This document shows, one piece after another, positions 40,481 through 63,527 of a stretch of DNA of 64,000 nt. Made by a program: the position numbers and the translations under genes. The DNA is from an uncultured Pseudomonadales bacterium. Lineage in GTDB: Bacteria; Patescibacteriota; Microgenomatia; UBA1400; UBA12108. Each line of letters opens with the position of its first letter. Positions within the stretch are counted from its first letter, which is position 1. The notes below the pieces were generated by a model, which saw only the letters and a list, made by a program, of their open reading frames with translations, searched no databases and was not told the DNA's origin. The DNA is taken from the NCBI GenBank assembly GCA_964349305.1, contig CAYGFS010000001.1, forward strand, positions 15,209 through 79,208, written 5' to 3'.

Positions 40481-40497
40481 ATGATATAATATAGGAC

Positions 40498-41010
40498 ATG
40501 AGTTTAGATCTTAGGGAAGCGAAAGCACAATTAAAACAGTCTTTGCATAATGAAGAGTTGGTTGCTGGATTATCAAATTCTTGCGAAGATCTCGACCCAT
40601 TATTGTTCTGGATTATGGGGGATGCAATCGGAATGGCGATGCTAAAGTCAGATTCAAAAGAAATATATAATTTTGTGGTAGGTTTGCAAGGTACTTTATT
40701 TAGTGGTAGCTGGGATTCACCAAAGAATATACATGAAGAGCAAATTGAACTTTTTTCAGATCAGGCAAAACAACGAATCGGTGCGGATAGGATCACTAGA
40801 GAAAATGTAGAAATTCGCTTATCTGAGATGAACTTAACTGATCTGTTGGTAATATTATATGAGCTAAGAACTTTTTCTATAGAAGATAGTACAAGAAAAA
40901 GAGTGGTTAGAAATATCGGTAAAACTATTAGAAATGAAAAAGGGCTTGAAAAATTAAGTGTACCCATTAAATACCTCAAGAAGATTATAGGTGACGAAAC
41001 TTATAACTAG
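40498..41010 (+). CDS. hypothetical protein, AT-rich orphan gene
   Basis: 170-aa ORF whose DNA is clearly more AT-rich than its flanks. No recognisable motifs. Confidence 0.4.
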   Translation: MSLDLREAKAQLKQSLHNEELVAGLSNSCEDLDPLLFWIMGDAIGMAMLKSDSKEIYNFVVGLQGTLFSGSWDSPKNIHEEQIELFSDQAKQRIGADRITRENVEIRLSEMNLTDLLVILYELRTFSIEDSTRKRVVRNIGKTIRNEKGLEKLSVPIKYLKKIIGDETYN

Positions 41011-42933: not shown

Positions 42934-43769
42934 AATTTTTTAGAATTAAGATTCAAGATTTTAGACGAAAGAAATCTTTTTGTTTGTTTGATTGGTGTAA
43001 TAATATAGGCTAAAGCTTCATATAGCATACTGCGATGAACCAGAGGATCTGGAACCAAATCAGGTCGAGGAAGTTTAAAAACTTCGGGCAGTGAACCCTC
43101 AATATTTATCCCCCGCTCAATTTTGTATTTACTGCGATTGAACATGGGCAGATTACCACCCATACTCGAGCGTTTTAAATACATGGCGTGATAGAGATAG
43201 GTCTGAGTGATATACCATTCTTTTGGATCATGGCTCAAAATAGAATAACCCTGTCCATCGTAAAATCCTTCGTTTGGGTAATCTCCCTGGTAAGCCAGTC
43301 CTTTGATTTTAGTTTTGTTGACTAGTCTGACGAGTAGGTGACCGTGATGACCAAACAAATTGTAACTCCCAACTGATTCGATTTGGCGGTGATAAACATC
43401 ACCCAGGAGATCAAACCGACGAACCACAATACCTTCATAGCGATCGGATTTGATGGCGGCAAGACATTCCTTGGCAGTATTATCGGGATAAACTTCGTCA
43501 CCGTCGACAATCCAAATCCATGATGTAGTCGTGAGGTCGAGCTGCTGTGATCTGATCGCTGTGACCTCTGCTGGTGTATTGGCAGTTGTTTGAGTGAGTT
43601 GGATTTTAGAAGACTTGATAGATTTAATCACTGCCACGGTATGGTCGGTAGAACCAGTATCGGTAATGAGAAACTTATCTACGTACGGAAGGATCGATTG
43701 GATCGCAAACCATACCCATTGATCTTCGTTTTTGACGATCATGTGAGCCGTGATTTGGGTAGCTGTCAT
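42930..43769 (-). CDS. glycosyltransferase family 2-like (GT-A)
   Basis: HMIVKNEDQWV...ITDTGSTDHT...WIVDGDEVY. GT-A/DxD architecture. Confidence 0.65.
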   Translation of the reverse strand: MTATQITAHMIVKNEDQWVWFAIQSILPYVDKFLITDTGSTDHTVAVIKSIKSSKIQLTQTTANTPAEVTAIRSQQLDLTTTSWIWIVDGDEVYPDNTAKECLAAIKSDRYEGIVVRRFDLLGDVYHRQIESVGSYNLFGHHGHLLVRLVNKTKIKGLAYQGDYPNEGFYDGQGYSILSHDPKEWYITQTYLYHAMYLKRSSMGGNLPMFNRSKYKIERGINIEGSLPEVFKLPRPDLVPDPLVHRSMLYEALAYIITPIKQTKRFLSSKILNLNSKKL

Positions 43770-45037
43770 AGCCTTTTATGACCCAGAAACTCTAGGTAAG
43801 TTTGGCGCACGTATAAAAGAGTAAAGGTGGTAACTGTGAGGCGGACGACAATCCTTACCATAGCAGCCCCGACCAGTCCATACTGCGGAATAAATAAGAG
43901 ATCTCCCACAATTAACACAACGGTTTGGATAATCCCTGTAATGGCATAGTACTGAGGTTTATCGAATAAATAGAAAAGCGCGATATAGGGTGAGGTCGCT
44001 CCGCTGATACCGGTGGCGAGCAACAATAATTGGAGCGGGAATGTACCAGAGAGATAAGCCGGCCCAATGGTCAAGTTAATGGCGAGACCCGCAAAGGGAA
44101 TGGTACAAATGAGCACAAACAAAACTAAGAGTGACAGCCGCCAAGCTTTGGACATATATTCTCTGAGATGTTTGGGATCACTGTACCGCGCCACCCGGAC
44201 ACTGAGAACCGAGCCGATCGACCAACCAATCACGCTGGCAAAAGTGGCAATGCGAGCGGCTCCAGACCAAATCCCGGTATCGTAGCTGCGCATAAAAGAC
44301 TGGACTATGAGCGTATCAACGTTGTCGGCGAGAGTAGCAGCGATGGCCGCAATGCTAGTCCATTTGGCAACACTCAGAATAATCCGCAGGTCTTTTTTCC
44401 AGGTATTTGGGAGCCTAAATGAAGAGAGGATCTGCCGATTCCATCCTAGTAAAGCACCAATGCCTGGCAGGAGACCATAAATCAAAAGCGCGCTCGTGGC
44501 GTGCAGCACTCCCTGCCAAATCAAAATCAACCCAAAGATAAGTTTGCCCAGTGCTTGGGCAATAGTAATCCGAGCCACCAGGGCAAAGCGGTGAGTTGAT
44601 TGCATGAGGGCCGTAGAATACTCAAAGAAGACCGTGCCAAGTGAAAGGACAAAGGCCAAACGGATTAAACTAATGTTCTCGAAATGGAGCAAAGTGTGAC
44701 TGATCCAGGGGGCTAGTATCCAGGCTGAGGTAATGGCGAGAGTAAAGCTAGCCAGTTTGAACCAAAGCGCGACTCGCATGAGCCTGTCAGCCAAGTCTCC
44801 GCTTTGATCGTGCACTCTCGCCACGGCCCGTTCAACGGCCATGTTGGTACCCAGGTCGGAGAGTCGTACCACAATTTGCATGGCCGCAAAAGCAGCGGAA
44901 AATAGTCCAAACTCCGTCGGCCCCATATAGCGCGAAAAAAGAATAAGGGCAATGGCGGAGGCGACCGTGCCAATAACATTACCAGACCCAAGCACAAAAA
45001 TGGATAATAACCCCGTCGATTTTACAAGTTGGGACAT
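43766..45037 (-). CDS. oligosaccharide/polysaccharide flippase, Wzx-like (MOP/PST family)
   Basis: 423 aa, about 12 TM helices, PST-family N-terminal pattern. Confidence 0.7.
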   Translation of the reverse strand: MSQLVKSTGLLSIFVLGSGNVIGTVASAIALILFSRYMGPTEFGLFSAAFAAMQIVVRLSDLGTNMAVERAVARVHDQSGDLADRLMRVALWFKLASFTLAITSAWILAPWISHTLLHFENISLIRLAFVLSLGTVFFEYSTALMQSTHRFALVARITIAQALGKLIFGLILIWQGVLHATSALLIYGLLPGIGALLGWNRQILSSFRLPNTWKKDLRIILSVAKWTSIAAIAATLADNVDTLIVQSFMRSYDTGIWSGAARIATFASVIGWSIGSVLSVRVARYSDPKHLREYMSKAWRLSLLVLFVLICTIPFAGLAINLTIGPAYLSGTFPLQLLLLATGISGATSPYIALFYLFDKPQYYAITGIIQTVVLIVGDLLFIPQYGLVGAAMVRIVVRLTVTTFTLLYVRQTYLEFLGHKRL

Positions 45038-46134
45038 ACAGCTCTTATTGTCTCACAGACAGTCCCTATTTGGTCATCGGTGATAGCCAAGCCAGATGGC
45101 AGGTAGCAGCCGTCCCTGGCAATCCTCTGTGTGACCGGGAATGACCCACCTCCCAAGCCTTTATCGGTGAGGGCTGGCTGGGTGCTGGGAGCATAAAAGA
45201 AATCGCGGGTATCGATCCCTTTGGACAGTAATTTGGCGCGAAACTCATCTTTATTGCAGCCAAATTTGGACTCGTCAATCAGGATGGCGTACATCCAGTA
45301 CACGTGAGTCGCCCAATTTCTTGTAGTAGGGAGGGTGATTCCAGGAATATCTTTTAATCCTGCTAGGTAAAGTTTGGCCATATGCTGTTTGGTGGCGAGA
45401 AATTCGCCGATGTGCTGGAGCTGACCGCTGCCGAGGGCTGCCTGCATGCTGGTCATGCGGTAGTTGTAGCCGAGGGCGTCGTGGATAAAGCGCTTGGCTG
45501 TACTGTGGGCTAAATCTTTCATCCTCCCCGCAAGTTCCGCCATCTGATCATTGTCGGTTGTCACCATGCCACCCTCGCCGGTGGTAATTATTTTGTTGGC
45601 GTAAAAACTAAAGGCATTCACGTCTCCGATAGATCCAGTCAGTTTGCCTTTGTAGGTAGCCCCGTGAGCTTCGGCGGCGTCTTCGATGACTACCAGGTCG
45701 TGTTTTTTGGCGATCGCCAAAATGGGATCCATATCGGCGGGATGACCGTAGATATGCACTGGCATGATGGCTTTGGTTTTAGCAGTAATTGCGGCCTCGA
45801 TGAGAGCAGGGTCAATCGTGTAGATATCCGGCTCGACATCGACAAAAATGGGAGTGGCCCCGGTATGCATGACCGCCATCCATGAGGCGGCCATGGTAAA
45901 TGCCGGTACGATGACTTCGTCCCCCTCGCCAATCCCGGCCGCCAGTAAGGCAATGTGGAGCGCAGCAGTACCGGTATTGACCGTGATGGCGTGTTTGACT
46001 CCCAGATACTCTGCAAATTCGTGCTCGAATTCGCTGAGGTAGGGTCCGGCAGAGGAGATCCAACCCTCTTCGAGTGCTTTGGCGACCAAGGACTTTGATT
46101 CTGGGGTAATGACGGGGGCGTTGACGGGTATCAT
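45022..46134 (-). CDS. DegT/DnrJ/EryC1/StrS-family PLP-dependent sugar aminotransferase
   Basis: 370 aa, VNTGTAALHIAL...VIVPAFTMAASW... and the conserved Lys region (SFYANKIITTGEGG). Confidence 0.85.
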   Translation of the reverse strand: MIPVNAPVITPESKSLVAKALEEGWISSAGPYLSEFEHEFAEYLGVKHAITVNTGTAALHIALLAAGIGEGDEVIVPAFTMAASWMAVMHTGATPIFVDVEPDIYTIDPALIEAAITAKTKAIMPVHIYGHPADMDPILAIAKKHDLVVIEDAAEAHGATYKGKLTGSIGDVNAFSFYANKIITTGEGGMVTTDNDQMAELAGRMKDLAHSTAKRFIHDALGYNYRMTSMQAALGSGQLQHIGEFLATKQHMAKLYLAGLKDIPGITLPTTRNWATHVYWMYAILIDESKFGCNKDEFRAKLLSKGIDTRDFFYAPSTQPALTDKGLGGGSFPVTQRIARDGCYLPSGLAITDDQIGTVCETIRAVCPNL

Positions 46135-48843: not shown

Positions 48844-50400
48844 CTAACTAGATTTTCTTTGTATTTTAAAAGCAGAATACAGGAGAAAACAGAGCGAGAT
48901 CGCATAGACAATAATCCACAAATACCAAAAGTCTCCTTTGGCAAAAAATGGCTTGTACTGGCTGATTTGGGTAATGAAAGCGGTAAACGAGCTCAGATCG
49001 TAGTAACTGGAGAGCAGCCGCCACAATCCTCCCAGCTGCATCCAGATGATAAAAACTGTAACTCCCCGCAACAGCCAAGTACGTACTTTGCCCCTGCGGC
49101 TGAGGGAGAGAATCCCGATGAGTAACAATGCCATGTGTGAAGCAATGGTGGGGAAGAGGTAGCGCGCTTGGACACCGATAGAGTAGCCAACCGATTTGAC
49201 GTATTGGTAATCAAAATAATAAATCGCAGAGGCATATACAAGGCTGGCCAAAAGGAGAAAGATTACATTGGGCCAGGGAGTGATTACTTTGATACGACGG
49301 ATAACCTTGGATAAATAGAGCGCTAAACCAGCCACAGAGAGGAGAACTAAACGGTTGGCTACCTGCCAATAAACGCTCGGCAATACTACCCCTAGCCATT
49401 TGAATACTCCCCAATACCACACAATATTTTGTGCTACTAGTTGATTGAGGGAGAAGCGGAGATACTCGACCACACTAGCACCGTGGATATTACTCGACAT
49501 CAACCAACCCTTGTAGCGATTGCCGGGGCCAAAAATAACGGCGAGGCCGATTAGCGCCATCACAGCGAAGGAAAGAAGCAGCCGCCACTTTTTGTGCGCG
49601 ACTATGTGTACGAGTAATGCCAGAATAATTACAGGAATGGCGAGATAACCCTGTGGTTTGGTGAGGATATCGAGCGCGGCAACCAAAACGCTGATGGCAC
49701 CTAATCGCAGGGTGGGGCCGGAGCGAACCAGTCTTAACCCTAGATAGATCACCATGGCAAAGATTAGATTGTGGAGGTTATCGGAATTGATCCCAGCTGA
49801 GAGAAAACTATACATAGGCTGGAGCATAACTAAAAGAGTCAGCACAATGGCGGACTGGGTGGACGCAAATAAAATGACGCCCAGCCGATACACGATAATT
49901 GCGGTCAGCACGGCAATCAGACTATTGCCGATCCGCAAGACAAAGATGCGGGTGATAATATCGGAGCTGCCAACCACCCGGTACCAAACACTCAAATAGT
50001 CGTAGTAAAGCCGCGGGTAATGGGCGGCTTCCTGACCCACATAGAGACTACGGGACTGGCTAGTGTTGAGTGCTATGATGTCCGCTTCGTATTTACCTCT
50101 CAGTGAGTCAGTAAAATCGAGGCGGAACTCTGGGTGGTATGTCAGCTGGTTATGACCCAGCCCATCGCGTAACACTCCCAGATATTGCTGAGTCAAATTC
50201 ATCTCCTCTGTCATGTCCAGTTCTTGACCGCGGGGTGATCTCCCCTCTTGCACCAGGAAATTGACGGTGCCAACGTGAGCTTGCTCATCGGGGAACTCAA
50301 ACAGTGGGGTAGCTAAACTCCAGAACAAAATCGCGCCAAAAATGGCCAGGAAAAATTTAAACTTGCCGCTGAACATAGCTATTCCATCCATCACGAACAA
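48844..50400 (-). CDS. polytopic membrane protein, DUF2142-like (putative GT-C glycosyltransferase)
   Basis: 518 aa. N-terminal FPDEQAH motif after the first TM helix, as in DUF2142-type membrane proteins. Start may be a downstream Met, since the track ORF overlaps the galE 3' end. Confidence 0.45.
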   Translation of the reverse strand: MFVMDGIAMFSGKFKFFLAIFGAILFWSLATPLFEFPDEQAHVGTVNFLVQEGRSPRGQELDMTEEMNLTQQYLGVLRDGLGHNQLTYHPEFRLDFTDSLRGKYEADIIALNTSQSRSLYVGQEAAHYPRLYYDYLSVWYRVVGSSDIITRIFVLRIGNSLIAVLTAIIVYRLGVILFASTQSAIVLTLLVMLQPMYSFLSAGINSDNLHNLIFAMVIYLGLRLVRSGPTLRLGAISVLVAALDILTKPQGYLAIPVIILALLVHIVAHKKWRLLLSFAVMALIGLAVIFGPGNRYKGWLMSSNIHGASVVEYLRFSLNQLVAQNIVWYWGVFKWLGVVLPSVYWQVANRLVLLSVAGLALYLSKVIRRIKVITPWPNVIFLLLASLVYASAIYYFDYQYVKSVGYSIGVQARYLFPTIASHMALLLIGILSLSRRGKVRTWLLRGVTVFIIWMQLGGLWRLLSSYYDLSSFTAFITQISQYKPFFAKGDFWYLWIIVYAISLCFLLYSAFKIQRKSS

Positions 50401-51325
50401 TTAAGCGAAGGGTGCTGACTGGTTCCCAACCGAGGGTAGACTGGGCGAGGCTAATGTCAGCGAGAGAGTAGCTAATATCGCCAGCCACTCTGGGCCCATA
50501 AACGACCGGGACTTTTTGGTTGGTTACGATCTCGACTTCTTTGATGACCTCCCCGATGGTACGACCCTCCCCGGATCCGAGGTTGAGAGTAAAAGAGGGT
50601 TTGCCTGCACGCAAATGGTGGATGGCGAGGATAAAAGCCAGAGCAATATCTTCGACGTGTACATAATCCCTGACTACCGTCCCATCCTGAGTATCATAGT
50701 CGTGGCCGCTAACAATGACTGATTCATCTTCCCCACCCGCAACTGCGAACAATCGCTGCATAATAGCTCGGCTGCCGCGGCTCTGACCCAGCCGACCTTC
50801 TGCCTCCGCTCCTCCGACATTGAAAAAGCGGAAAATCCCATACGAGCCAGTTGGTTCAACTAATTCTTTAAGCGAATATTCTCCCGCTAGTTTGGTTTGA
50901 CCATAAACATTGGTCGGAGAACAGGGGTGTGATTCTTTAATTGGTGCTACCCCGCTGGGGGTACCATAAACTGCCGCCGAGCTGGCATAAAGAAACCGCT
51001 TAACCCCGACTTTGACCCCAGCCTGCCAAACATTGCGTGAACCCTGATCGTTGACCTCTGTGTAGAGCTCGGCGAGACTATTGCTTTCGGCCGCATTGAC
51101 GAGCGCGGCCAAGTGGATGATCTCGGTAATATCATGAGAGGCAAAAAGATTGTCCAAGGCGGCGATGTCTCTGATGTCACCAACCACCAGTTCTTCACTA
51201 TAAAGTAGCGCCTGCTTGTTGCCCTGAGTCAGATTGTCAAATACCACAACCTGCTCACCGGCCTCACTGAGGGCTTTGACCACATGGCTCCCGATATACC
51301 CACATCCACCCGTCACTAAGATCAT
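50357..51325 (-). CDS. galE: UDP-glucose 4-epimerase / NAD-dependent epimerase-dehydratase (GalE-like)
   Basis: [16 protein letters not shown] Rossmann motif, SAAVYG and YGQTK catalytic region. Confidence 0.8.
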
Positions 51326-51352
51326 GGAGCCATTATACGGTACAATATCCTC
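51326..51352. promoter_or_regulatory. compact divergent promoter region: TATAAT 6 nt upstream of the galE ATG (minus strand) and TACAAT 6 nt upstream of the GT2 ATG (plus strand), implying leaderless transcripts
   Basis: 27-bp spacer ggagccattatacggtacaatatcctc. Minus strand reads gaggatattgtaccgTATAATggctccATG. Confidence 0.4.
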
Positions 51353-52051
51353 ATGAAACAGTACGGCAGCGTGTCGATCGTAATCCCGGTTTATAACGAG
51401 AAAAAATCCCTACCCAAAATAATTACTAAAGTATTAGAAGCGCCAGTTGCGGGACTGAGTAGGCAAATCGTGGTGGTAGATGACGGGAGTACCGACGGTA
51501 CGTCAGAGCTGCTAAAGAAAATGCGAATAAAGGGGCTTAAAAAGATTTTTTTACCCACCAACAAAGGTAAAGGAGCCGCACTGCGCGCAGGATTTGCGGT
51601 TACAACGGGCGAGATCGTGATTGTGCAGGATGCAGATCTCGAATACAACCCGCAAGACTATCCCGTGCTCTTGTCGCCTATTTTGGCCGGGAGCAGCGGG
51701 GTAGTTTATGGGTCGCGCGAGCTGACAATTAATACCCATTCTTATCCGATATTTTTTTTGGGCGGCAAGATTGTCACGCTCGCCACTAAACTCTTATTTG
51801 GCGGGAAGCTAACCGATGTGCCGACGGGTTACAAAGTGTTTGACCGCCAAATCCTGATGAAACTGCCCCTGCGGTGCGTACGATTTGAGTTTTGCCCAGA
51901 AGTGACGGCGCTCTTATTGCAGCGAGGGATCCCTATTGTAGAGGTACCAATCCGCTATGCTCCTCGCACTATTACAGAAGGTAAAAAAATCAAATGGCAG
52001 GATGGCATTGAAGCAATCACGACACTGCTGCGAGTGAGGATTGGTTTATGA
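51353..52051 (+). CDS. GT2 polyprenyl-phosphate glycosyltransferase (DPM1/GtrB/ArnC-like)
   Basis: [14 protein letters not shown]...[12 protein letters not shown]...[12 protein letters not shown], 232 aa. Confidence 0.8.
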
Positions 52052-52614
52052 GACACCTAGCGTTTGGGGAAAGCAAAAGATCATGGCTAGACCATATCAT
52101 TGCCTACGTTCGCATCTCAGCTATCAAGCGTGAGATAGTCCAGGGCGGTAAGCTGCTAGACCTAGGATGCGGATACAACGGTGAGCTACTCCAAGAACTA
52201 AGCGGACAGATCAGCGGCGGAACAGGGATAGATTTGAGCGTGAACCCCAAAACAAAATTGATGAAAGGGAGAGTCGATCAAAAACTGCCGCTTGAGAGTA
52301 ATACGTTTGACGCGGTCTCGGCTCTAGCCATTATTGAGCACGTGGACTACCCGGAGATTATGCTGAATGAAAGCTACCGGGTACTCAAACCGGGCGGCAA
52401 ACTGCTGATTACTACCCCGTCGCTCATGGGTAAACTGCCTCTAGAAATCATGGCCTATTTAGGACTGATTAGTAAAGCTGAGATCGATGACCACAAACGC
52501 TATTACACGAGATCCTCACTTCGCCAGGCTTTGATGGATGTTGGGTATAAACAAGTAAAAGTAAAACATTTTGGGATCTTGTGGCTCAATTTGTTGGCAA
52601 AGGCAACCAAGTAA
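52048..52614 (+). CDS. class I SAM-dependent methyltransferase
   Basis: [16 protein letters not shown]-binding motif I and [12 protein letters not shown] post-I region. Translationally coupled to both flanking genes. Confidence 0.75.
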
Positions 52615-54462
52615 ATGTCGATCAGCGAGCTGGTGCAAGTGAGTGGATATTTTTTACTTTTTTTGTCGTGTGTAACTGGGCTAGGTATTTTTACCGTATC
52701 GATTATCACTAAACGGATCAATTTGGCGGATATCGGGGTGTACATTCTGATTGGCCTAGGCATGTTGGGCAACCTAGCTTTAGTCCTGGGACTTGGTGCT
52801 AGCTTCACTCGGACAAACATCCTGATCATCGCGAGCTTGGGGATAGTGCTGGGGGCTTGGCAGCTAGTCAGATTGCGACGGTTGACTGTTATACCTGGGA
52901 AGAACTTGATCAAAGCCATAAAAACAGATTTGCTGGCTACATTGTGCTTGGTATTTGCGGTGATCTCTACAGCGACCTTGTATTTCTCAGCCATGCAACC
53001 ACCCCATGCGACCGACGAACTGCATTATCATTTCCCCCAAGCTAGGCAAATTGCGCAAACCGCGACAATAAACTGGTCATTTGACGGACACTATTTTTAC
53101 GGCAATATTCCCAAGCTGGTAGATGTGCTGTTTGGAGTAGGTCTAACTGTGCAAGGATATCAGTTAGCACACTTGCTCAATTACACTTTTTTAATCGGCT
53201 TTGTCTTGTTAGTCATGTTGGTGGTTTACCGGAGATACGGATACCGCAGCGGCGTATTTGCCGTCCTACTATTGCTATTGTTTGAAGATTTTACCTGGAA
53301 CGCGACTGTCGGATTTGTGGACTCGGCCACGTCTACACTAGAGATAGGCTCACTCCTGTTACTCATAACCTGGCTAGACAAAAAGAAAAATGATCTGCTG
53401 CTGATGTCGGGACTCCTGATTGGATTCTCCCTGGGAGCCAAGTATTCTCCCCTCCCCACAGCCCTCTTCATGACCATAATCGTCCTGAGCGTGAGCATCC
53501 GTGATAAAACCGGAAAATATATGATGGTGTTCAGCGTGCCGGCACTCCTAGCTGGTGGTTATTGGTATGTCAAAAACTGGATTTTATTTGGTAATCCTTT
53601 TTATCCCATGTATTTTGGCCACAAAGGAGTAAGTGAAGAATCGTATCAGAGTCTAATGGAGGCGATCTGGCAATGGGAAGCCAAAACTGGATCTGTCTTT
53701 TTGGCTAAACTGAGCAGGTGGCGGACATATTCTGAGCTCAGTACTTATCTCGCGATTTGGGTGTCCCCGCTGGCGATATGGTGGGGTAAGAAAGATAAGT
53801 TTTTGGCCCTTCTGTCTCTATACTTTATGCTGTATGTGCCCTACTGGTTCTTTTTTGCTACACACCAAACACGATTTCTCTTGACCGCGTTGCTGGTGGC
53901 CAATATTGTCTTGGCGATCATGCTGGCCAAACTCCCCGCCAAGATAATTGGCTTGGGAATAATGGGGCTACTGGCGACTTTACTCTATATCCGCCCTTAC
54001 CCTGGTAGAACTTTGTTAGAGCATTACATCTGGATGAAACTACATACCGTCGAGCGACAGTACGGCCTAGGAAATGTCACTGAAACCGAGTATTTGCATA
54101 GGGAGTTTGGGTGTCAGTACGACGCCATCAACTATTTAAATCATCTAGAAGGAAAAGAAAAAGTCATCGATAATTGGAGCGTGTGGCATGCTCCGAGTCT
54201 AGGTTACTTTGCCGCTAAAAATAAATTTGTTATTTATACCCCCAGCGATACAGACTTAGATGAGATTTTCGCTGACTTGAAAGCAAATTCAATCGGATAT
54301 TTGTACGTGAATACCAATATCAGGAGCCAATATTTACAGAACACTGATTCGATAGTAGAGAAAACCAAACCGGGCAAACTAAGGGCAGATGAAGTATTTA
54401 TACCCAGATCTCAACTCGTTTTTGAAGTCGATACCTGCAAAGTATACAAATTGGTGTACTAG
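52615..54462 (+). CDS. polytopic membrane glycosyltransferase, GT-C-like
   Basis: 615 aa. About 12 TM helices followed by a C-terminal soluble domain. TDELHYH acidic motif in the first large loop. Confidence 0.5.
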   Translation: MSISELVQVSGYFLLFLSCVTGLGIFTVSIITKRINLADIGVYILIGLGMLGNLALVLGLGASFTRTNILIIASLGIVLGAWQLVRLRRLTVIPGKNLIKAIKTDLLATLCLVFAVISTATLYFSAMQPPHATDELHYHFPQARQIAQTATINWSFDGHYFYGNIPKLVDVLFGVGLTVQGYQLAHLLNYTFLIGFVLLVMLVVYRRYGYRSGVFAVLLLLLFEDFTWNATVGFVDSATSTLEIGSLLLLITWLDKKKNDLLLMSGLLIGFSLGAKYSPLPTALFMTIIVLSVSIRDKTGKYMMVFSVPALLAGGYWYVKNWILFGNPFYPMYFGHKGVSEESYQSLMEAIWQWEAKTGSVFLAKLSRWRTYSELSTYLAIWVSPLAIWWGKKDKFLALLSLYFMLYVPYWFFFATHQTRFLLTALLVANIVLAIMLAKLPAKIIGLGIMGLLATLLYIRPYPGRTLLEHYIWMKLHTVERQYGLGNVTETEYLHREFGCQYDAINYLNHLEGKEKVIDNWSVWHAPSLGYFAAKNKFVIYTPSDTDLDEIFADLKANSIGYLYVNTNIRSQYLQNTDSIVEKTKPGKLRADEVFIPRSQLVFEVDTCKVYKLVY

Positions 54463-56765
54463 TTAGCTTGCGACTCACGGACATATATCTCCCAGATATT
54501 ACCGGGCGAGACAGCAATATCTTTACGAAAATATTTTGGATTTTTAATGAACTGGACGAGACGGGTATTACTATCAAGCAAGTCAAATTTCGTAAGGGAT
54601 AAATCGTCCTGCGCTATCACAAGATAATCGACCTGATTGTCCACAAAGTATTGCATGATCTCAGCATCCGAAGAGTTTAGAATAGGAAATAGCTCTTTGA
54701 CACCATAGCCGGAATACATATTCCACGCGATTAATGCGGTTTGATAGGCAGTAGAGGTGGGTGGACCAAAGATTAATATTTTAGAACCTAGCCTAGCATG
54801 TGACTTGAGATAGGGTGAAACAAATTCTATTTCACCGGAGTTACCAAACAGCATTAGCTGTTCCCGTCTGGCAAAATCCCATGGTCTATAATGAGAGACG
54901 CGCACAATGATAAACAAATAAGGTAAAAGTAAAAAAACCAAGGCAGCGATAGATAGACTGACATATGTGGGTTTAATGTTTTTGATACGAAGAATGGTAT
55001 ATACCAAAAAGCTTGCGCCTAACCCTACAGCAATCATGAGCGGATATGGATTTTGCCCATCAGTGTGACCGGCAACCTGGCGAAGCCAGTAGTTGATTGT
55101 CTGTAGTGAATTTTTTACGACTTCTTCACTATTTTGAGTACTCACCACGACCGGATTGGCATTATTTAGTGTAGCTTGTAGATGGGAAAACGAGGGACCA
55201 AAGTTCCAGCCGATAAAATCAGATTGTGTCAGGGATAGTGCAGCAAAGGCGATAACTCCTACGAGTATTTTCTTGGGTTTTGTGGCAAACTTGACGATGC
55301 CAGATGTAATTGTAATTGCTATGATCGGGAATATGATCAGTAAATAGCGGTTGTTGGCACCCCCAAAAAAAGTCAAAGTGAGGAAGTATAGATAAAGTGA
55401 CCAAAATAGTGGGATTAGTAATAGTTTGTTCGTGATCAGCGAAAAAAAGCCAATTATTTTGGGAATGAGGTAAACAGTGCCAAATGTAGGTGCGAGCAAT
55501 AGTGCTAGAAAATCAGTGGCGGACAATTGCTCTACTTGGGTTTGCACAAGTCTTTGGATGACATAGAACTGGTGATAGTCGGAAGTGAGGGGAGTTGTTC
55601 CGCTCCCGTAGAGAGCGATGTTGCGGTAGAACCACGCCAAGCCAAGCCATGAAAGAGCTAGCGGAGCGAGACAGCAGAGAGCTGTCCAGCTATAGTGTCG
55701 TGCTTGATTCTTAGATATTGAAAACAAGGCAAGCGCGAGAGACAGTAGGGAAAAAATTACGAGCGCTGATAGGCTAGGGACGGCGTAGCCAAAGCCGGTG
55801 AGTCCGGTGAGTGGATGTCTGGTCAAGTAATAAGGAGCAATAATAAAAATTCCAAGAGGAAACCGAAGCCAAGCCCTAGCCCACGCCAACTTGATCGCAA
55901 TAATTATTAAGGAGATATAAACCAGCACTAATCCCTGACTTTTCAGCAGAATGCTGGCAGCTAAGATAATTCCGAGTGCAGCACTGAGATAAACCTGGCT
56001 GCGGGCTGATGATAAATTAAAATAGATGTATTCGAGGAAGTAGAATGTGGTGAGTCCGATAAACCCGTATATTACGTCAGGATATAGGCTCCAGTTGAAG
56101 AGCAAGCCGTCGATCCCTGGTAATGACAGTAAAATAATAATTGTGACAATTGAATTGAATTTAGATAAGTACTTTCGGGCATATAAATAGGTGAGCAGTA
56201 ATATCCCTATGAAAGCTGGCAAAGTCAAAAAGCGGAAATTTTCGGTAAATAGGGAATTTGAAAGGATATAGTTAGAGGCATACAAAATAGGTCCCCCAAT
56301 GGGGGGGATTGTCATGGGGTCGGCAGTATAGACATCTTTGAACGGGGCATGACCAGTTGTCACGATACTCCTGGCATAGGGTAAATACGAGTTAATTATG
56401 TCTGGATCAATGATTGGATGAACTGCGTATATAGTAATAACCTTAAATATCATAATAATGGTTATTAGCACGGCAAATTTTTCGATCCGCGATAATTTGG
56501 CTAGGTACAATACTTTGGATCTAAAAATTGTGCGAATACTTTGGAGAGTCAATATTCCTCCTAGTGTAGTGAGAATATAAACCGCCAATCGTATGTTAAT
56601 TTGCGAGAAAAGACTGCTCCAAGAGGCTAATACGATAAATAGACCCGAGCTAAGCGCCATGGAAAAAACTATTTTCTCAAAATTGTGCCACCCCTGTACC
56701 AATTTTGAATTCCAAATTACCCCAGTGAGAGAAAAGTAGAGAATAAGCGGGAAAATCAGACCCAT
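54459..56765 (-). CDS. large polytopic membrane protein (768 aa), probable GT-C-type glycosyltransferase/polymerase
   Basis: About 20 TM helices plus a C-terminal soluble domain. AT-rich gene. Tail-to-tail CTAG overlap with the 52615..54462 gene. Confidence 0.4.
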   Translation of the reverse strand: MGLIFPLILYFSLTGVIWNSKLVQGWHNFEKIVFSMALSSGLFIVLASWSSLFSQINIRLAVYILTTLGGILTLQSIRTIFRSKVLYLAKLSRIEKFAVLITIIMIFKVITIYAVHPIIDPDIINSYLPYARSIVTTGHAPFKDVYTADPMTIPPIGGPILYASNYILSNSLFTENFRFLTLPAFIGILLLTYLYARKYLSKFNSIVTIIILLSLPGIDGLLFNWSLYPDVIYGFIGLTTFYFLEYIYFNLSSARSQVYLSAALGIILAASILLKSQGLVLVYISLIIIAIKLAWARAWLRFPLGIFIIAPYYLTRHPLTGLTGFGYAVPSLSALVIFSLLSLALALFSISKNQARHYSWTALCCLAPLALSWLGLAWFYRNIALYGSGTTPLTSDYHQFYVIQRLVQTQVEQLSATDFLALLLAPTFGTVYLIPKIIGFFSLITNKLLLIPLFWSLYLYFLTLTFFGGANNRYLLIIFPIIAITITSGIVKFATKPKKILVGVIAFAALSLTQSDFIGWNFGPSFSHLQATLNNANPVVVSTQNSEEVVKNSLQTINYWLRQVAGHTDGQNPYPLMIAVGLGASFLVYTILRIKNIKPTYVSLSIAALVFLLLPYLFIIVRVSHYRPWDFARREQLMLFGNSGEIEFVSPYLKSHARLGSKILIFGPPTSTAYQTALIAWNMYSGYGVKELFPILNSSDAEIMQYFVDNQVDYLVIAQDDLSLTKFDLLDSNTRLVQFIKNPKYFRKDIAVSPGNIWEIYVRESQAN

Positions 56766-57847
56766 GGCGAGCCGTTAATAGCATGTGCGATTTGGACGAC
56801 CTCAGCTTTGGACAAATACGGACCACAAGGAATGGAGAGTATTTCTTTAGTCAGCTGACGCGAAACCGGCAAATTGAGATCTGCGTATTCACGATTAAAA
56901 AGAGGCTGGTCTGGGATCAGGATGGGATAATGAACGAGGGTGGGAATATTTAATTGTTGCAAATATGTTTGTAATTCATTACGCTTTTTGACTCTGATGA
57001 CAAACTGATGGTAATTGGCCTGGGTAGAGGGTAGTGGCAAAATTGGATCTATTTTGGATTTATCTAGGTTTTCTAGATAAATTTTGGCATTGGCGGATCG
57101 GCGACCATTGAGCTCGTTTAAGTGCTTGAGCTTTTCCCTCAGTAGGGCTGCCTGGAGTTCATCTAACCGACTATTTAAGCCATAGACGACGTGCTCGTAT
57201 TTCTTGGCCTGACCATAGTCACGGATTTGGCGGCATTTGGTGGCCAAAGCATCATCATTCGTCGTAATACATCCGGCGTCGCCAATGGCACCAAGATTTT
57301 TGGTCGGGTAGAAACTAAAACAACCAAGCTCACCAATCGTGCCAAGCATTTGCTGCTTGTACATTGAGCCGTGCGCCTGTGCAGCATCCTCGATGACGAA
57401 TAGGTTGTGGGTCTTCGCTATCTCTCGAATTGGCTCAATTGCACAAGCATTGCCATAGAGATGGACGGGCAAGATCGCACGGGTTTTAGGTGTAATGGCC
57501 GCTTTGATTAATGCTTCATCAATTTGTCCATCAAGCTTGGTGTCGACAAAAACTGGAGTGGCTCCGACCGCGATAATAGCCAAGGTTGTGGCAATGGCTG
57601 AAAGCGGAGTAGTAATAACTTCGTCCCCCGGCCCGATGCCGAGCGCCATCAGCGATATTTGGATGGCTTCTAAACCGTTTGATACGCCGATGACGTGCTT
57701 TGAACCCAAGTAGTCAGCAAATTCGGCTTCAAATGATTCGACCTCTTTGCCTAAAATATACCACCCTGAGTCGAGAGTCCTAGTAAAGGCGGCATGATAC
57801 AACTCGGAAAATTCCTTGGCTTCGGCTTTAAAATCGACAAATTGCAT
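56756..57847 (-). CDS. DegT/DnrJ/EryC1/StrS-family sugar aminotransferase
   Basis: 363 aa, VSNGLEAIQISL..., conserved Lys region (SFYPTKNLGAIGDAG). Confidence 0.85.
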   Translation of the reverse strand: MQFVDFKAEAKEFSELYHAAFTRTLDSGWYILGKEVESFEAEFADYLGSKHVIGVSNGLEAIQISLMALGIGPGDEVITTPLSAIATTLAIIAVGATPVFVDTKLDGQIDEALIKAAITPKTRAILPVHLYGNACAIEPIREIAKTHNLFVIEDAAQAHGSMYKQQMLGTIGELGCFSFYPTKNLGAIGDAGCITTNDDALATKCRQIRDYGQAKKYEHVVYGLNSRLDELQAALLREKLKHLNELNGRRSANAKIYLENLDKSKIDPILPLPSTQANYHQFVIRVKKRNELQTYLQQLNIPTLVHYPILIPDQPLFNREYADLNLPVSRQLTKEILSIPCGPYLSKAEVVQIAHAINGSPWV

Positions 57848-57852
57848 AGTAG

Positions 57853-58287
57853 TTATTTGTTTTTTAGATCGACTTGCTTCTTAAATTCGGCGTACTGCCG
57901 GATATAGTCAGACTCCTCATACTTGTCTGAGGCCAGTATAAGCATCACGGTGTCGCTGCCAATGTCGTGCATCTCGTGCCAGACCATAGGACGGAGAATG
58001 ACACCAATTGAGGGGTCGTCTAGGACTACTTCTTCCCGGTTGTAACCATTGTCGAGGATCATTTTCATACTCCCACGAATACAGAAAAAAACCTGTTCGA
58101 GTTTTTTGTGAGTATGATAACCTCTGGGTAAATTGGGCGCGTTATCGACCATGTAGTAAACCCGTTTAATCACGAAGGGGATCTGCTTGCCAGTTTCGGC
58201 CACACACATGAGACAATCATCATTGATTGTTTGCAAGATTACTTTTTCGATTAAGGGTTTTTTTGCCATAAGCCACGAACGTGCCAA
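57853..58287 (-). CDS. FdtA/QdtA-like (WxcM C-terminal domain) NDP-sugar 3,4-ketoisomerase, cupin fold
   Basis: 144 aa. IPFVIKRVYYMVDNAPNLPRGYHTHKKLEQVFFCIRGS matches the FdtA-family core. Adjacent to the DegT aminotransferase (FdtA-FdtB-type pair). Confidence 0.65.
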   Translation of the reverse strand: MARSWLMAKKPLIEKVILQTINDDCLMCVAETGKQIPFVIKRVYYMVDNAPNLPRGYHTHKKLEQVFFCIRGSMKMILDNGYNREEVVLDDPSIGVILRPMVWHEMHDIGSDTVMLILASDKYEESDYIRQYAEFKKQVDLKNK

Positions 58288-59234
58288 TATAATGGACCCA
58301 GATGCTTTGAGATCTTACTTCTGAGTATAGCAGATAGTTTCCTCTGCGGAGGATCGAGCTTAAAGGTTGGATCAATGGTTTGGACCAGTTTGAGTTGTTT
58401 ATTTAATTCTTGAATATATGGCTGATAAATATATTTGACGGTGTGTTTGTCAAATTGATATCCGTGTGCATAGTCGTAATTGGACGGATTCCAATATTCT
58501 AGTTGGTGGAAGTGATACACGACTAGTTTATCGCGATTGATATATACCTCGCCTTGGTTTTTGGTTACCTGGTACTGAGCAATATTCCAGGGGGCTGCAT
58601 TGACGCCTAAATTCTGGGAAATGGAGATACTCTGATATTTCTTGGGCCACTGGTTGAGATAAAGCTGATCGCCAAATCGCCCTGGTTCCTCTTTGAGATA
58701 GCACCACTCGTTACACCGCTCTCTCCACCAATTGATGCAAGCCCTCCCCTCTTTGTCATTTTTCCAAAACTGGACTGCGACATTAAATCGCCCCGAGATA
58801 TTGTCTCGGTATTTTTGATCTTGAGGATACCGATGCTCCACCATATAGATGGATTTGTCACCCATTTCTTGGATAATTGCACCAGGTGAGGAGTAAAAAT
58901 ACAGATCTGCGTCAAGATAGGAGACAACATCGATATCTTTATGGTGAGCCAAGACATATCGCGGCAGAGAGGGAGTACAAGTCCAAAAATATTCGACCAG
59001 ACTGCGATTAGATTTGGCCTTTTTCAAGGCAGAATCTTCAAAATCTGACAGGGCAATGGTGGTGACCCCTTTGAGATGCAAAGTATCCAAAATGTTCTGG
59101 GTATATGGGTCCATACACAGTACATCGAGTTTGGCGGTGGGATCGTGCCTAAGTAGGGAGGCGTGGAGTGCCAGTCCTTTGAGAAGGTAGTTTTTGTTAA
59201 AATAGGTACTATAGCGCAACTTGGGTGACTTCAT
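58251..59234 (-). CDS. nucleotide-diphospho-sugar transferase, GT-A fold with DxD (family uncertain)
   Basis: 327 aa with VVSYLDADLYFYS DxD motif. No further assignment possible. Confidence 0.4.
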   Translation of the reverse strand: MKSPKLRYSTYFNKNYLLKGLALHASLLRHDPTAKLDVLCMDPYTQNILDTLHLKGVTTIALSDFEDSALKKAKSNRSLVEYFWTCTPSLPRYVLAHHKDIDVVSYLDADLYFYSSPGAIIQEMGDKSIYMVEHRYPQDQKYRDNISGRFNVAVQFWKNDKEGRACINWWRERCNEWCYLKEEPGRFGDQLYLNQWPKKYQSISISQNLGVNAAPWNIAQYQVTKNQGEVYINRDKLVVYHFHQLEYWNPSNYDYAHGYQFDKHTVKYIYQPYIQELNKQLKLVQTIDPTFKLDPPQRKLSAILRSKISKHLGPLYWHVRGLWQKNP

Positions 59235-59236
59235 AA

Positions 59237-60109
59237 CTAATGATTGTACTGCGCTTTGATCCGCTTAAGCAATTTGTGAACCCCTGGGAATGGTAAGGTT
59301 AACAAGTAAGCCGTCTTAAGTATCAGTCTGAGGTAGTTGATTGTGCGGAATCTCGCCGGGCAAGCGAGGGTAATAAACCAGAATTGATCAATGATATTGA
59401 GTTTTGACCTCCGATCAAACATGAGTTCGAGTGATTGTTTGAGGCTAATTGTTTCTGAGAGAGAATCACCAATCCCAGTATTCCTGACGTCGTTGGTAAC
59501 TACACAATCATCTCTGACAACAAGGGTATAGCCTAGTCTTTTCGCGCGAATCGTCAGCTCGTAATCTGAGATATAGTGGGGAAGATGATGAGACAGGAGT
59601 CCGATGTGATGAAACATGGACACTGGGTAGAGCGTACCTTTGGTGGTGATCGCGTCGAGTGGATCAGATGACTTGGTTCTGCCCGCGATCTTCCCCCGAG
59701 ACCAATCGATCATAACGCCCAAGTCCCACAATTTGCCAGTCTTTTGATCGATTATTTTTGAGCCAACCACCATTTTCTCTTTGGCATACTTGGAAATCTG
59801 AGCAAGATATGATTCATCAATTTGACAATCGTTGTTAATAGTTAGGATATAGTCGTTGCCACTAGCATGCTGCAAAATGTATTGAATACCGATGTTGAGT
59901 GATCCTGTCCACCAGAGATTGCCGCTGCCTGTGATCACTTTGACTTGGGGGTAGTGCTGTTTGAGATAATTACCAGTACCATCGGTTGAGCCGTCATCAA
60001 CTACCACAATTTGAAAATTCTGATATTTTTGCTTTGCTAAACAGGTTAATAGCTGTTTGAGATTGGTCAAATCGTTGTGGACTGCGGTCAAAACGTAGAG
60101 TTGGTTCAT
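59237..60109 (-). CDS. glycosyltransferase family 2
   Basis: YVLTAVHNDLTNL...[12 protein letters not shown] and a DxD-type region. Confidence 0.8.
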   Translation of the reverse strand: MNQLYVLTAVHNDLTNLKQLLTCLAKQKYQNFQIVVVDDGSTDGTGNYLKQHYPQVKVITGSGNLWWTGSLNIGIQYILQHASGNDYILTINNDCQIDESYLAQISKYAKEKMVVGSKIIDQKTGKLWDLGVMIDWSRGKIAGRTKSSDPLDAITTKGTLYPVSMFHHIGLLSHHLPHYISDYELTIRAKRLGYTLVVRDDCVVTNDVRNTGIGDSLSETISLKQSLELMFDRRSKLNIIDQFWFITLACPARFRTINYLRLILKTAYLLTLPFPGVHKLLKRIKAQYNH

Positions 60110-62885: not shown

Positions 62886-63527
62886 TTACTTGGTGAGAAA
62901 TACCGCTGTACTAGCAAAGAGGTTGGGATAATTTTTGAGGACTATCTTGGTGCTACCGAATAAACTTTTTGGGAAAATATGGGATTCCTTCAATATTTTG
63001 AATTTGTTCCGGTCGCAAAAGTTGCGGAAATCCTGGATAGATAATTGATGGATATGACCGGTAGAATACCAGTCGTAACTAGGTATCATAGTTTTGGGCA
63101 TCACCCCTTTTATAAGCAGTTCTAACCGATTGAGTGCAAACGCAAAATTGGGAAAAGTCACAATTTGAAAGCGACTAATGCGGTGCATTTCTTGGAGGAG
63201 AATTTCTGGATACATGACCATCTGCAAGGTGACGTTACAGGTGGCATAATCAAATTGCTTGTCTTTGTAGGGCAGGAGTGTATCAATTTTGCCCTGCCGA
63301 ACTTTTAGACCTTTCTGCAGGGAAACTTTAACCCCGCTCCGGCTGATTTCTACCCCTTCTCCCTGAACTTTCTTGGAGTTTTTTAACAATAAAAGCAGGG
63401 AGCCATCCCCAGATCCCAGGTCAATAACTTTAGCGCGTGGTTTGTCGATCAGGTCAGCGATAATGGGATATTCATCGCGACTCGCGGTAGAGTCTGCGCT
63501 AAAATGATAATTGCGATTGTCATTCAT
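62886..63527 (-). CDS. class I SAM-dependent methyltransferase (MetW-like small MTase)
   Basis: VIDLGSGDGSLLLLL motif I, about 210 aa. Confidence 0.65.
   Translation of the reverse strand: MNDNRNYHFSADSTASRDEYPIIADLIDKPRAKVIDLGSGDGSLLLLLKNSKKVQGEGVEISRSGVKVSLQKGLKVRQGKIDTLLPYKDKQFDYATCNVTLQMVMYPEILLQEMHRISRFQIVTFPNFAFALNRLELLIKGVMPKTMIPSYDWYSTGHIHQLSIQDFRNFCDRNKFKILKESHIFPKSLFGSTKIVLKNYPNLFASTAVFLTK

Follow-up and report, generated by a model that had tools for sequence, protein, structure and literature searches.

The stretch of DNA analysed in this work (hereafter the window; 64,000 nucleotides of contig CAYGFS010000001.1) carries on its plus strand three contiguous genes, coding for a GT2-family glycosyltransferase, a class I S-adenosylmethionine (SAM)-dependent methyltransferase that we call MT188, and a 615-amino acid (aa) membrane protein with a predicted GT-C fold. 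This trio is faced, on the minus strand, by an operon that includes a DegT-family aminotransferase and an FdtA-type isomerase. A first, sequence-only reading of the region had named these five genes, and both their positions and their families were confirmed by the open reading frame (ORF) map and by Pfam/NCBIfam scans. The features on which the argument depends are the following:

51353-52051, plus strand: GT2 glycosyltransferase, 232 aa (PF00535, E=1.6e-30)
52048-52614, plus strand: class I SAM methyltransferase MT188, 188 aa (PF13489, 1.5e-17; PF08241, 1.5e-14)
52615-54462, plus strand: 615-aa polytopic membrane protein, predicted GT-C fold (no Pfam match; AlphaFold2 (AF2) model and Foldseek)
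54459-56765, minus strand: 768-aa membrane ORF with about 16 predicted transmembrane (TM) segments, last gene of the FdtA-DegT operon
56756-57847, minus strand: DegT-family pyridoxal phosphate (PLP) aminotransferase, sugar C-3 type (PF01041, 6.8e-113)
57853-58287, minus strand: FdtA-type nucleoside diphosphate (NDP)-4-keto-6-deoxyhexose 3,4-ketoisomerase, cupin (PF05523, 1.1e-39)
58251-59234, minus strand: GT8-like soluble glycosyltransferase, 327 aa (weak PF01501, E=0.006)
50357-51325, minus strand: GalE-type UDP-hexose 4-epimerase, divergent from the trio (TIGR01179)
51326-51352: divergent spacer of 27 bp from the GalE ATG to the GT2 ATG, read from the sequence

The translational coupling proposed by that reading is evident at the junction of the first two genes, where the GT2 stop and the MT188 start overlap as ATGA (52048-52051); the MT188 stop codon TAA (52612-52614) directly precedes the GT-C start codon at 52615, so that MT188 is coupled to both of its neighbours. 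The GT-C gene had also been described as abutting DegT. This does not hold in the window, where the 768-aa minus-strand ORF, omitted from the earlier description, sits between the two, with overlaps of 4 nt at the GT-C stop and of 10 nt at the 3' end of DegT. The GT-C and DegT groups do abut in the relative L001.

The methyltransferase MT188 and its gene fusions

MT188 has an intact motif I (LDLGCG), and residues D38, G40, G42, E97, H98, E145, I146, D148, H149 and K150 are invariant in its family. Its AF2 model (pLDDT 92.3) shows a generic class I methyltransferase fold, for which the fold search returned 1296 PDB matches at E<=0.001, the listed ones being all SAM-dependent methyltransferases.

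A search with MT188 against 1.84 billion cluster representatives yielded 26 matches with E-values under 1e-30 and 859 under 1e-10. Among the best 150 matches, 14 are longer than 400 aa, and these were examined by Pfam and BLAST. Specifically, ten of the 14 consist of an N-terminal GT2 followed by MT188, in the same order as the window genes. The GT2 part of six of these fusions is 42-45% identical to the full-length window GT2, and in one of the ten (P0251) five TM segments lie between the two domains. Two more of the long proteins (P0221, P0253) consist of a PMT_2-type GT-C with MT188 at the C-terminus, while the remaining two have a different, non-GT2 N-terminal domain (P0305) or a methyltransferase-methyltransferase arrangement (P0176). 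The named sources of the fusions are metagenome-assembled genomes of Patescibacteria, Dojkabacteria and Actinomycetota, and one of the fusion proteins is annotated by NCBI as 'bifunctional glycosyltransferase/class I SAM-dependent methyltransferase'.

All together, these genome comparisons show MT188 to be an obligate partner of this GT2, coupled to it here and fused to it elsewhere, and we predict that it methylates the sugar handled by the GT2. The presence of a methyltransferase between a lipid-sugar synthase and a GT-C enzyme had been regarded as unusual; MT188 turns out instead to be a conserved, sometimes fused and recurring component, not a local oddity.

The topology of P0221 and P0253 deserves a separate remark. 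The usual C-terminal domains of GT-C enzymes face outward and here this position is taken by an MT188-type domain; a SAM-dependent domain must be cytoplasmic, and therefore these two GT-Cs must end inside the cell.

More generally, the joining of a methyltransferase to a lipid-sugar synthase is a theme seen repeatedly in these genomes. The related loci L006 and L016 contain a paralogous four-part module, in which the N-terminal part of a fusion protein (469-475 aa) is a methyltransferase from a different subfamily and the C-terminal part a DPM1-like GT2. We rejected these fusions as direct evidence on MT188, as BLAST places their methyltransferase domain in a different subfamily, and we retain them as support for the theme only. 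In both loci (L006, 6319-9776, minus strand; L016, 11560-14702, minus strand) the fusion is followed by an SMR/EamA-like membrane protein of 116-121 aa, a candidate flippase as ArnE/F, and then by a GtrC-like protein of 460-534 aa.

The GT2 synthase and the 615-aa GT-C protein

The PF00535 match of the window GT2 extends over residues 8-168 and describes a GT-A domain with a DXD motif (DDGSTDGT, QDADLEY; DAD). Its best PDB matches are ArnC (8e-20, residues 6-211) and the Pyrococcus DPMS (3e-18, residues 6-214), with alignments that each span about 205 of the 232 residues; GtrB is a weaker match (6e-9). The top NCBIfam matches are AglJ, ArnC, PpgS and dolichyl-phosphate hexose transferase. The closest solved relatives of the enzyme are thus polyprenyl-phosphate sugar synthases, in line with the polyprenyl-phosphate glycosyltransferase assignment made before, and we predict that the GT2 is a synthase of this kind, belonging to a DPM1/ArnC/AglJ/PpgS-like clade. 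Orthologues 56-67% identical to it are found in 8 loci.

An alignment-based AF2 model of the 615-aa protein was obtained with good scores (pLDDT 90.7, pTM 0.91). The top Foldseek matches of this model are the ArnT entries 5f15 (E=1.5e-6, TM-scores 0.50/0.56) and 5ezm (0.52/0.58), followed by STT3, ALG12, PglB, ALG9 and AftA. The model therefore supports the earlier assignment of the protein to the GT-C enzymes, with a predicted ArnT-like fold. The acidic loop TDELHYH noted by the sequence-only reading is confirmed. Its residues D134, E135 and H139 do not vary among 34 homologues (27-51% identity), nor do P129, P130 and P141, so that the loop reads PPxxxDELxYHxP. The D134-E135 loop lies early in the protein, after a TM helix, and presumably faces outward. 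A second invariant motif occupies residues 327-336 (family consensus NPFYPxYxGH), and the C-terminal alpha/beta domain contains a conserved cysteine pair (C500 and C608). As to family models, NCBIfam LIC_10190 matches the protein at 1e-10, with 40.8 bits vs a cutoff of 100, and some homologues carry PF26626 (DUF8201), PF09594 (GT87) or PF13231 (PMT_2).

Related loci

Related loci were collected through homology to the GT-C or to the methyltransferase, and the locus counts given here are descriptive and not a statistical test. A scan of GTDB representative genomes yielded 8 loci. Where named, the GT-C and methyltransferase homologues belong to Paceibacterota, Patescibacteria, Shapirobacteria, Kaiserbacteria and a few Actinobacteria.

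The order GT2-MT-GT-C, which is found in at least 9 distinct metagenomic loci, is kept in L001, L002, L005, L006, L013, L017, L019 and L021, at 35-67% identity. In L014 (Kaiserbacteria) the GT2-MT pair has a different downstream partner, and it is only here that a GtrA-domain protein precedes the pair. A GalE-type epimerase is the divergent neighbour of the trio in the window and in L001, L002, L019 and L021.

With regard to the amino-sugar genes, the synteny comparison showed FdtA/DegT and the trio to share a cluster in seven distinct related loci (L001, L002, L006, L016, L017, L019, L021). In L006 and L016, FdtA-DegT lie in one same-strand gene string with the GT2. Specifically, L016 has overlapping genes for an NTP-transferase, FdtA, DegT and a GT2 of 233 aa that shares 39% identity with the GT2 of the window, and these are followed by an inverted short-chain dehydrogenase/reductase (SDR) gene and then by MT-GT-C-GT-C, and L006 has the arrangement FdtA-DegT-GT2 (320 aa)-GT2-MT-GT-C on one strand throughout. 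In the Actinobacteria loci L007 and L018, homologues of the 615-aa protein adjoin homologues of DegT2, as the aminotransferase encoded beside FdtA (56756-57847) is labelled.

GT2-MT pairs, trios or fusions with no FdtA/DegT within 7-10 kb occur in L008, L009, L013, L014 and L020. The GT2 of L013 is 57% identical to the window GT2, as similar as the GT2s of FdtA-bearing loci, and the trio of this locus adjoins a Wzm/Wzt transporter with a Wzt_C cap-binding domain.

A side observation concerns L020 (160-12910), on a 671-kb Patescibacteria contig, in which a GT2-MT188 fusion and a convergent PMT_2 GT-C lie directly beside a type IV pilus cluster whose genes code for five pilins, a prepilin peptidase and a T2SSF-family protein. 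The arrangement is a hint that such modules could act on pilins.

The FdtA-DegT genes and the search for a dehydratase

The cupin carries the sequence PRGYHTHKK, which aligns on PRGFHAHKK of FdtA, and both histidines (H58, H60) are kept. These are the catalytic positions replaced in the mutant entries 2pae and 2pak, presumably His49 and His51 of FdtA. A lack of the catalytic histidines, which the sequence-only reading had named as grounds for refutation, is thus not observed. The best solved relative is the Aneurinibacillus FdtA (2pa7, 6e-41), and PF05523 is matched with 135.7 bits vs a cutoff of 23. The aminotransferase is closest to DesV (2oga, 6e-96), WlaRG (5u1z, 5.5e-90), QdtB (3frk, 8e-86) and WbpE (2e-77), and its matches to ArnB are weaker (1e-43 to 1e-48). 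It contains the sequence FYPTKNLG, which we take to be the conserved lysine (PLP) motif of the DegT family. The route from FdtA and DegT to an NDP-3-amino-3,6-dideoxyhexose that the sequence-only reading had put forward is therefore well supported at family level, with a DegT of the C-3 aminotransferase type.

This route calls for an NDP-hexose 4,6-dehydratase, and none is encoded within the window, where the only SDR is GalE-type. The divergent SDR gene (50357-51325) was considered for this function and rejected: its product passes the GalE cutoff (TIGR01179, 289.6 bits vs 262.3), contains SSAAVYG...YGQTK and no TDE, and matches only epimerases in the PDB, the best being UDP-glucose 4-epimerases (e.g. 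2c20, 3e-57). A TDE-type SDR beside FdtA was likewise absent from the syntenic loci L001-L019, a scan outside which L021 lies. An RmlA-like nucleotidyltransferase gene is found directly 5' of FdtA in L006 and L016.

The window codes for a second DegT protein (45022-46134, minus strand), which is perosamine-synthase-like and resembles a C-4 aminotransferase (3bn1, 7.5e-90). A ManC-like GDP-mannose pyrophosphorylase is encoded at 22499-23620 (minus strand) in the island, and no GDP-mannose 4,6-dehydratase was found in the window, so that both aminotransferases are without a local dehydratase.

The GT8-like 327-aa transferase is present in all 9 distinct DegT-bearing loci, which makes it the most constant neighbour of DegT, and its L019 orthologue gives an unmarked GT8 match. 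It is a candidate cytoplasmic user of the NDP-3-amino sugar and would be its simplest consumer.

Proposed mechanism and alternative interpretations

Taking the above observations together, we consider, with a little more confidence than doubt, that the trio would constitute a compact lipid-linked monosaccharide glycosylation module with a built-in methyltransferase, similar in kind to the Gtr, Arn and DPM/PMT systems and located in a large cell-surface glycan island of a Patescibacteria-type bacterium. In the proposed mechanism, the TM-less GT2 would use a nucleotide sugar as donor and charge polyprenyl phosphate with its sugar on the cytoplasmic side of the membrane, as its family resemblance suggests. 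The next step would be cytoplasmic methylation of this sugar by MT188, most likely once it is linked to the lipid, after which the lipid-linked methyl-sugar would be flipped across the membrane, the window having no dedicated flippase gene. Finally, the ArnT-fold GT-C protein would transfer the methyl-sugar to an acceptor outside the membrane by means of D134, E135 and H139. The acceptor would most likely be the glycan built by the adjoining conserved minus-strand operon, which, besides the enzymes predicted to make an NDP-3-amino-3,6-dideoxyhexose (FdtA and the C-3 aminotransferase), codes for a GT2, a GT8-like transferase, additional methyltransferases and other GT-C-like proteins.

Several observations weigh against this proposal. 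No GtrA, SMR or MATE flippase gene was detected in the window by Pfam scans and TM prediction. The GT2 has no predicted TM segment in its 232 aa and thus does not have the C-terminal TM helices of GtrB and ArnC; synthases of the DPM1/PpgS type are TM-less. It also scores far under the equivalog cutoffs for AglJ (106.6 vs 325 bits), ArnC (68.7 vs 529) and PpgS (51 vs 370) and therefore, as judged from these profiles, has no orthologue among the named enzymes. For the 615-aa protein, Pfam gives no match at E<=0.01. The PDB sequence and fold searches bring up generic class I relatives of MT188 only, from which neither its substrate nor the choice between O- and N-methylation can be read. Fusion and synteny establish the partnership of the two enzymes and not the order of the reactions, and all homologues of the trio members come from metagenomes.

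As to the sugar loaded onto the lipid, the comparative data lean to a common hexose, supplied possibly by the GalE-type epimerase, and make the 3-amino sugar the less favoured candidate. The presence of GT2-MT pairs, trios and fusions without FdtA/DegT in some loci, the constant GT8-like partner of DegT and the GalE neighbour of the trio are the reasons for which we favour a model where the trio would add a methylated common hexose to a glycan containing the 3-amino sugar. None of the observations demonstrates the previous suggestion that the 3-amino sugar is the lipid-linked one; GT2-MT also occurs without FdtA/DegT, and DegT always occurs with the GT8-like transferase.

More speculatively, GT2-MT188(-GT-C) might represent an undescribed class of extracytoplasmic glycosylation system, in which the methyltransferase would be an integral subunit, methylation would precede flipping, and the three proteins would form one membrane complex in which the GT-C anchors the two TM-less enzymes. 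Such systems would be common among Patescibacteria, would occur in Actinomycetota as well, would cap surface glycans or possibly type IV pilins with methyl-sugars, and could in the lineage of the window carry an N-methylated 3-amino-3,6-dideoxyhexose. We put this forward tentatively, as a possibility about which our doubts prevail.

The alternative that survives best, although we judge it unlikely, is an Arn-like scheme in which the FdtA/DegT product is the donor of the GT2, the methyltransferase modifies the amino sugar (e.g. by N-methylation replacing N-formyl or N-acetyl) and the GT-C delivers it outside, in the way of ArnT with Ara4N. FdtA and the C-3 aminotransferase are genuine, they cluster with the trio in the window and in the 7 related loci, and homologues of the GT-C lie beside those of DegT2 even in Actinobacteria. 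The gene strings of L006 and L016 (NTP-transferase-FdtA-DegT-GT2 and so on) fit an amino-sugar donor equally well, and to this extent they count against the common-hexose proposal. In addition, methyltransferases are consistently conserved in the cluster and no N-acyltransferase is, and the Xanthomonas wxc region 3, discussed below, offers a precedent. On the other hand, the five loci in which GT2-MT lacks FdtA/DegT nearby speak against such a dependence, the soluble GT8-like transferase that always accompanies DegT2 would be a simpler consumer, and no 4,6-dehydratase was found in the window or beside FdtA in the loci scanned. Moreover, no sequence relation of MT188 to the sugar N,N-dimethyltransferases of solved structure is detectable: its PDB sequence matches at E<=0.01 include neither TylM1 nor DesVI. 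Both are missing also from the matches of the 332-aa and the MetW-like methyltransferases of the cluster at E<=0.001, which are likewise generic class I enzymes and give no clue to the substrates.

It is distinctly unlikely, in our opinion, that MT188 partners the GT2 and the GT-C and yet acts elsewhere, either by methylating a growing cytoplasmic glycan (e.g. as a chain-terminating cap) or mainly by anchoring the TM-less GT2. The cluster does contain at least 3 other methyltransferases and many cytoplasmic glycosyltransferases; relatives of MT188 are fused to a non-GT2 domain (P0305) or to another methyltransferase (P0176) and occur in cytoplasmic sugar clusters (L015); and the trio of L013 lies beside Wzm/Wzt with its cap-binding domain. 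An anchoring function has a parallel in human DPM1, which needs membrane subunits. However, the intact SAM motif and the invariance of the polar residues E97, H98, D148, H149 and K150 argue for catalysis and not for a scaffold, and it is this GT2 in particular to which MT188 is mostly fused, with the gene order of the window.

Finally, a function of the GT2 as a common cytoplasmic transferase that extends a repeat unit linked to pyrophosphate, with the 615-aa protein as a polymerase, ligase or oligosaccharyltransferase-type GT-C that moves entire glycans and not a single lipid-phosphate-linked sugar, would agree with STT3 and PglB among the structural matches, with a GT2 below all equivalog cutoffs and with the Wzx and Wzy_C-type genes of the island, but it appears very improbable in view of the top structural match, ArnT, which is a monosaccharide transferase, of the best solved and curated relatives of the GT2, all of them polyprenyl-phosphate monosaccharide synthases aligned over nearly the full length, and of the tight GT2/GT-C coupling and the GtrB-like GT2-TM-MT fusion P0251, which fit a lipid-phosphate route.

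Composition and origin of the block

The region from 52.6 to 62.3 kb had been described as AT-rich compared with the rest of the window and, on this ground, as a horizontally acquired sub-island. The lower G+C content is real (0.42-0.45 after about 53 kb vs about 0.49), but it is mild, and the G+C content at third codon positions (GC3) of the trio is normal. Specifically, GC3 is 0.52-0.53 in the three plus-strand genes and is lower only in the minus-strand genes from the 768-aa ORF (54.4 kb) on. The mean GC3 of the genes from 52615 on is 0.486 vs 0.54-0.555 elsewhere (Mann-Whitney p = 4e-4).

A total of 14 genes between 48.8 and 63.5 kb, including the 768-aa ORF and the GT87-like and GNAT genes, are collinear with L021 at 42-72% protein identity, and therefore we rejected a recent acquisition, also on account of the mild GC3 shift, which excludes the trio, and of the absence of any tRNA gene from the window. 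As judged by this comparison, the 48.8-63.5 kb region appears to be an old block, vertically maintained or anciently shared.

Low GC3 values are observed in other parts of the island as well, namely in a GT2 gene at 42930-43769 (minus strand; 0.396) and in ManC (22499-23620, minus strand; 0.449). Both undercut the flagged stretch with the exception of the 768-aa ORF and the GT87-like gene, and the island is compositionally patchy. In L021, an MBOAT protein and an AlgX-like protein, that is an O-acetylation pair, are encoded after the DUF2142 gene (18053-20477, plus strand), at a place where the window has a 374-aa membrane ORF and a 201-aa ORF.

Other neighbours and the surrounding glycan island

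The genes that complete the neighbourhood of the trio, with families assigned by Pfam from the GT2 to the MetW-like gene, are:

59237-60109, minus strand: GT2, 290 aa
60106-61104, minus strand: methyltransferase, 332 aa
61089-62309, minus strand: GT87-like membrane protein, 406 aa
62306-62917, minus strand: GNAT acetyltransferase
62886-63527, minus strand: MetW-like methyltransferase
48844-50400, minus strand: polytopic membrane protein, 518 aa, about 8 predicted TM segments (DUF2142-type in homologues)

The pair formed by the 290-aa GT2 and the 332-aa methyltransferase is kept in L001, L002, L006, L008, L016, L017, L019 and L021, and the GT87-like, GNAT and MetW-like genes are collinear in L021 at 50-72% identity.

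Neither Pfam nor NCBIfam matches the 768-aa ORF, which occupies the same position in L021 and has only 6 homologues among 5.8 billion proteins. NCBI gives the most distant of these, with 27% identity, the name 'glycosyltransferase family 39 protein'. Compared by hhalign with the profile of the 615-aa GT-C family, the ORF gives a weak N-terminal match at the acidic-loop region (E=0.005, probability 7%). It is probably a further GT-C-type enzyme. Its N-terminus, with three TM helices and then ...HPIIDPDIINSYLPYARSIV, presents a weak parallel to the acidic-loop region of the 615-aa protein. The 518-aa protein is probably another GT-C-like enzyme. The window copy has no Pfam match and no match to the 615-aa GT-C profile; its orthologues in L001, L019 and L021 carry PF09913 (DUF2142), and the protein is collinear beside the GalE gene in L001, L002, L019 and L021.

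Within the divergent spacer between GalE and the GT2, the minus strand reads TATAAT at 51337->51332 and the plus strand reads TACAAT at 51341-51346. Both -10-like hexamers are 6 nt from their own start codon, with no room for a Shine-Dalgarno sequence, an arrangement that suggests leaderless-type starts. L001 has a comparable AT-rich spacer of 35 bp. The consensus scan found no full -35/-10 promoter in the spacer, and promoter/terminator scans of the spacer and of the convergent gene ends gave nothing above chance.

On a larger scale, the first 17 kb of the window correspond to the dcw cell-wall/division cluster, and the DNA from about 20 kb to the window end forms one very large glycan island, which contains many GT4/GT2 enzymes, a Wzx, a Wzy_C protein, a ManC-like nucleotidyltransferase and two TM-less DPM1-like GT2s. 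At least 7 GT-C-like proteins are encoded in the roughly 35 kb between 27830 and 62309, starting at 27830 and 36853 (PMT_2), 38211 (540 aa), 48844 (DUF2142-type), 52615 (615 aa), 54459 (768 aa) and 61089 (GT87-like), with the Wzy_C protein at 29253 besides. Such a density implies extensive glycan assembly outside the membrane.

Two further features of the island were recorded. A second module (38211-41010, plus strand) comprises the 540-aa membrane protein (8 TM segments, no Pfam match), a second TM-less DPM1-like GT2 (232 aa, with the canonical GGQSK motif) and a soluble ORF of 170 aa, the latter with a G+C content of 0.343 and a GC3 of 0.287, so that it looks like a recent insertion. A cupredoxin/plastocyanin-like ORF of 165 aa (32480-32977, minus strand) lies between a hexapeptide acyltransferase and a 377-aa unknown ORF.

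Comparison with known systems

A general route for extracytoplasmic surface decoration is the transfer of single sugars linked to a lipid phosphate, as in the Gtr, Arn, DPM/PMT and mycobacterial systems. The predicted methyltransferase-coupled lipid-linked sugar module is conserved in Patescibacteria and occurs as fusion proteins in several phyla, its function being deduced from sequence, structure prediction and gene context. Patescibacteria depend on contacts between their surface and their hosts, and almost nothing is known of their surface glycans. If the proposal is correct, it explains how methyl-sugars could reach extracytoplasmic glycans and gives a sequence signature to be used in uncultivated bacteria, and the natural GT2-MT fusions are simple targets, made of soluble domains, for direct biochemistry.

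Three-component systems consist of a synthase, a flippase and a GT-C, sometimes with enzymes that tailor the lipid-linked sugar, e.g. epimerases (PMC11127046). GtrA/GtrB/GtrC of Shigella and Salmonella, CsbB/GtcA/YfhO, GacI/J/K/L and the Citrobacter youngae pentofuranose systems (PMC11127046) resemble the trio in that a GT2 synthase is genetically coupled to a single-sugar GT-C. Unlike them, the trio has no GtrA, SMR or MATE flippase gene, its GT2 is TM-less, and a SAM methyltransferase lies in its middle. The literature searched contained no such system with an embedded or fused methyltransferase, and to our knowledge none has been characterised.

The Arn pathway shares with the trio the closest solved relative of the GT2 (ArnC), the closest fold of the 615-aa protein (ArnT) and a nearby aminotransferase. 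In addition, its lipid-linked sugar is tailored before flipping (ArnD), as we propose here with the methyltransferase; ArnD and NaxD are further examples of enzymes that tailor a lipid-linked sugar between synthase and GT-C. It differs in the aminotransferase, which in the window is of the C-3 type and not ArnB, and in the route, FdtA-type (6-deoxyhexose) here and not by UDP-GlcA decarboxylation, and the acceptor is unlikely to be lipid A. No ArnA, ArnD or ArnE/F gene was found in Pfam scans of the major ORFs of the window, SMR-like proteins occurring only in the paralogous modules of other loci. The trio is thus not a member of the Arn pathway, by the type of aminotransferase and the absence of ArnA, ArnD and ArnE/F, nor is it a canonical Gtr system, having no GtrA and no TM anchor. 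It follows that an aminotransferase near a GT2/GT-C pair is insufficient to infer an Arn-like amino-sugar route.

FdtA/FdtB of Aneurinibacillus thermoaerophilus, QdtA/QdtB and WlaRA/WlaRG have the same catalytic-histidine cupin and an adjacent C-3-type aminotransferase. The window differs from these pathways in having no adjacent FdtC/QdtC-type LbH acetyltransferase or formyltransferase and no RmlA/RmlB. In the characterised FdtA/QdtA/WlaRA systems the product is used by cytoplasmic transferases.

In Xanthomonas campestris, the wxc region 3 reportedly comprises the aminotransferase WxcK, the GT2 WxcL, the isomerase/acetyltransferase WxcM with an FdtA-type isomerase, WxcN and WxcO, membrane proteins being part of the set, and is said to add Fuc3NAc side branches. 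This precedent is partly echoed in PMC13133917. Likened by description, not by sequence, this cluster, which has an acetyltransferase domain and no methyltransferase, is the closest precedent for the routing of a 3-amino-3,6-dideoxyhexose through a lipid.

Lastly, the mycobacterial routes (Ppm1 with PimE/Mpt GT87; PpgS with Rv3779; MtxS Rv0539 with MtxT Rv0541c) combine TM-less or loosely anchored GT2s with GT-C enzymes, and a further likeness is seen in the several GT-C paralogues per island and in the GT87 or PMT_2 matches of some 615-aa homologues, even though the similarity of PpgS itself to the window GT2 is low, as its bit score indicates. MtxS/MtxT handle a methyl-bearing sugar by means of a lipid donor, but in that case the methyl group derives from methylthioadenosine, with no dedicated SAM methyltransferase. 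If the mechanism proposed here is correct, methylation would join deformylation, deacetylation and epimerisation among the known steps by which lipid-linked sugars are tailored.

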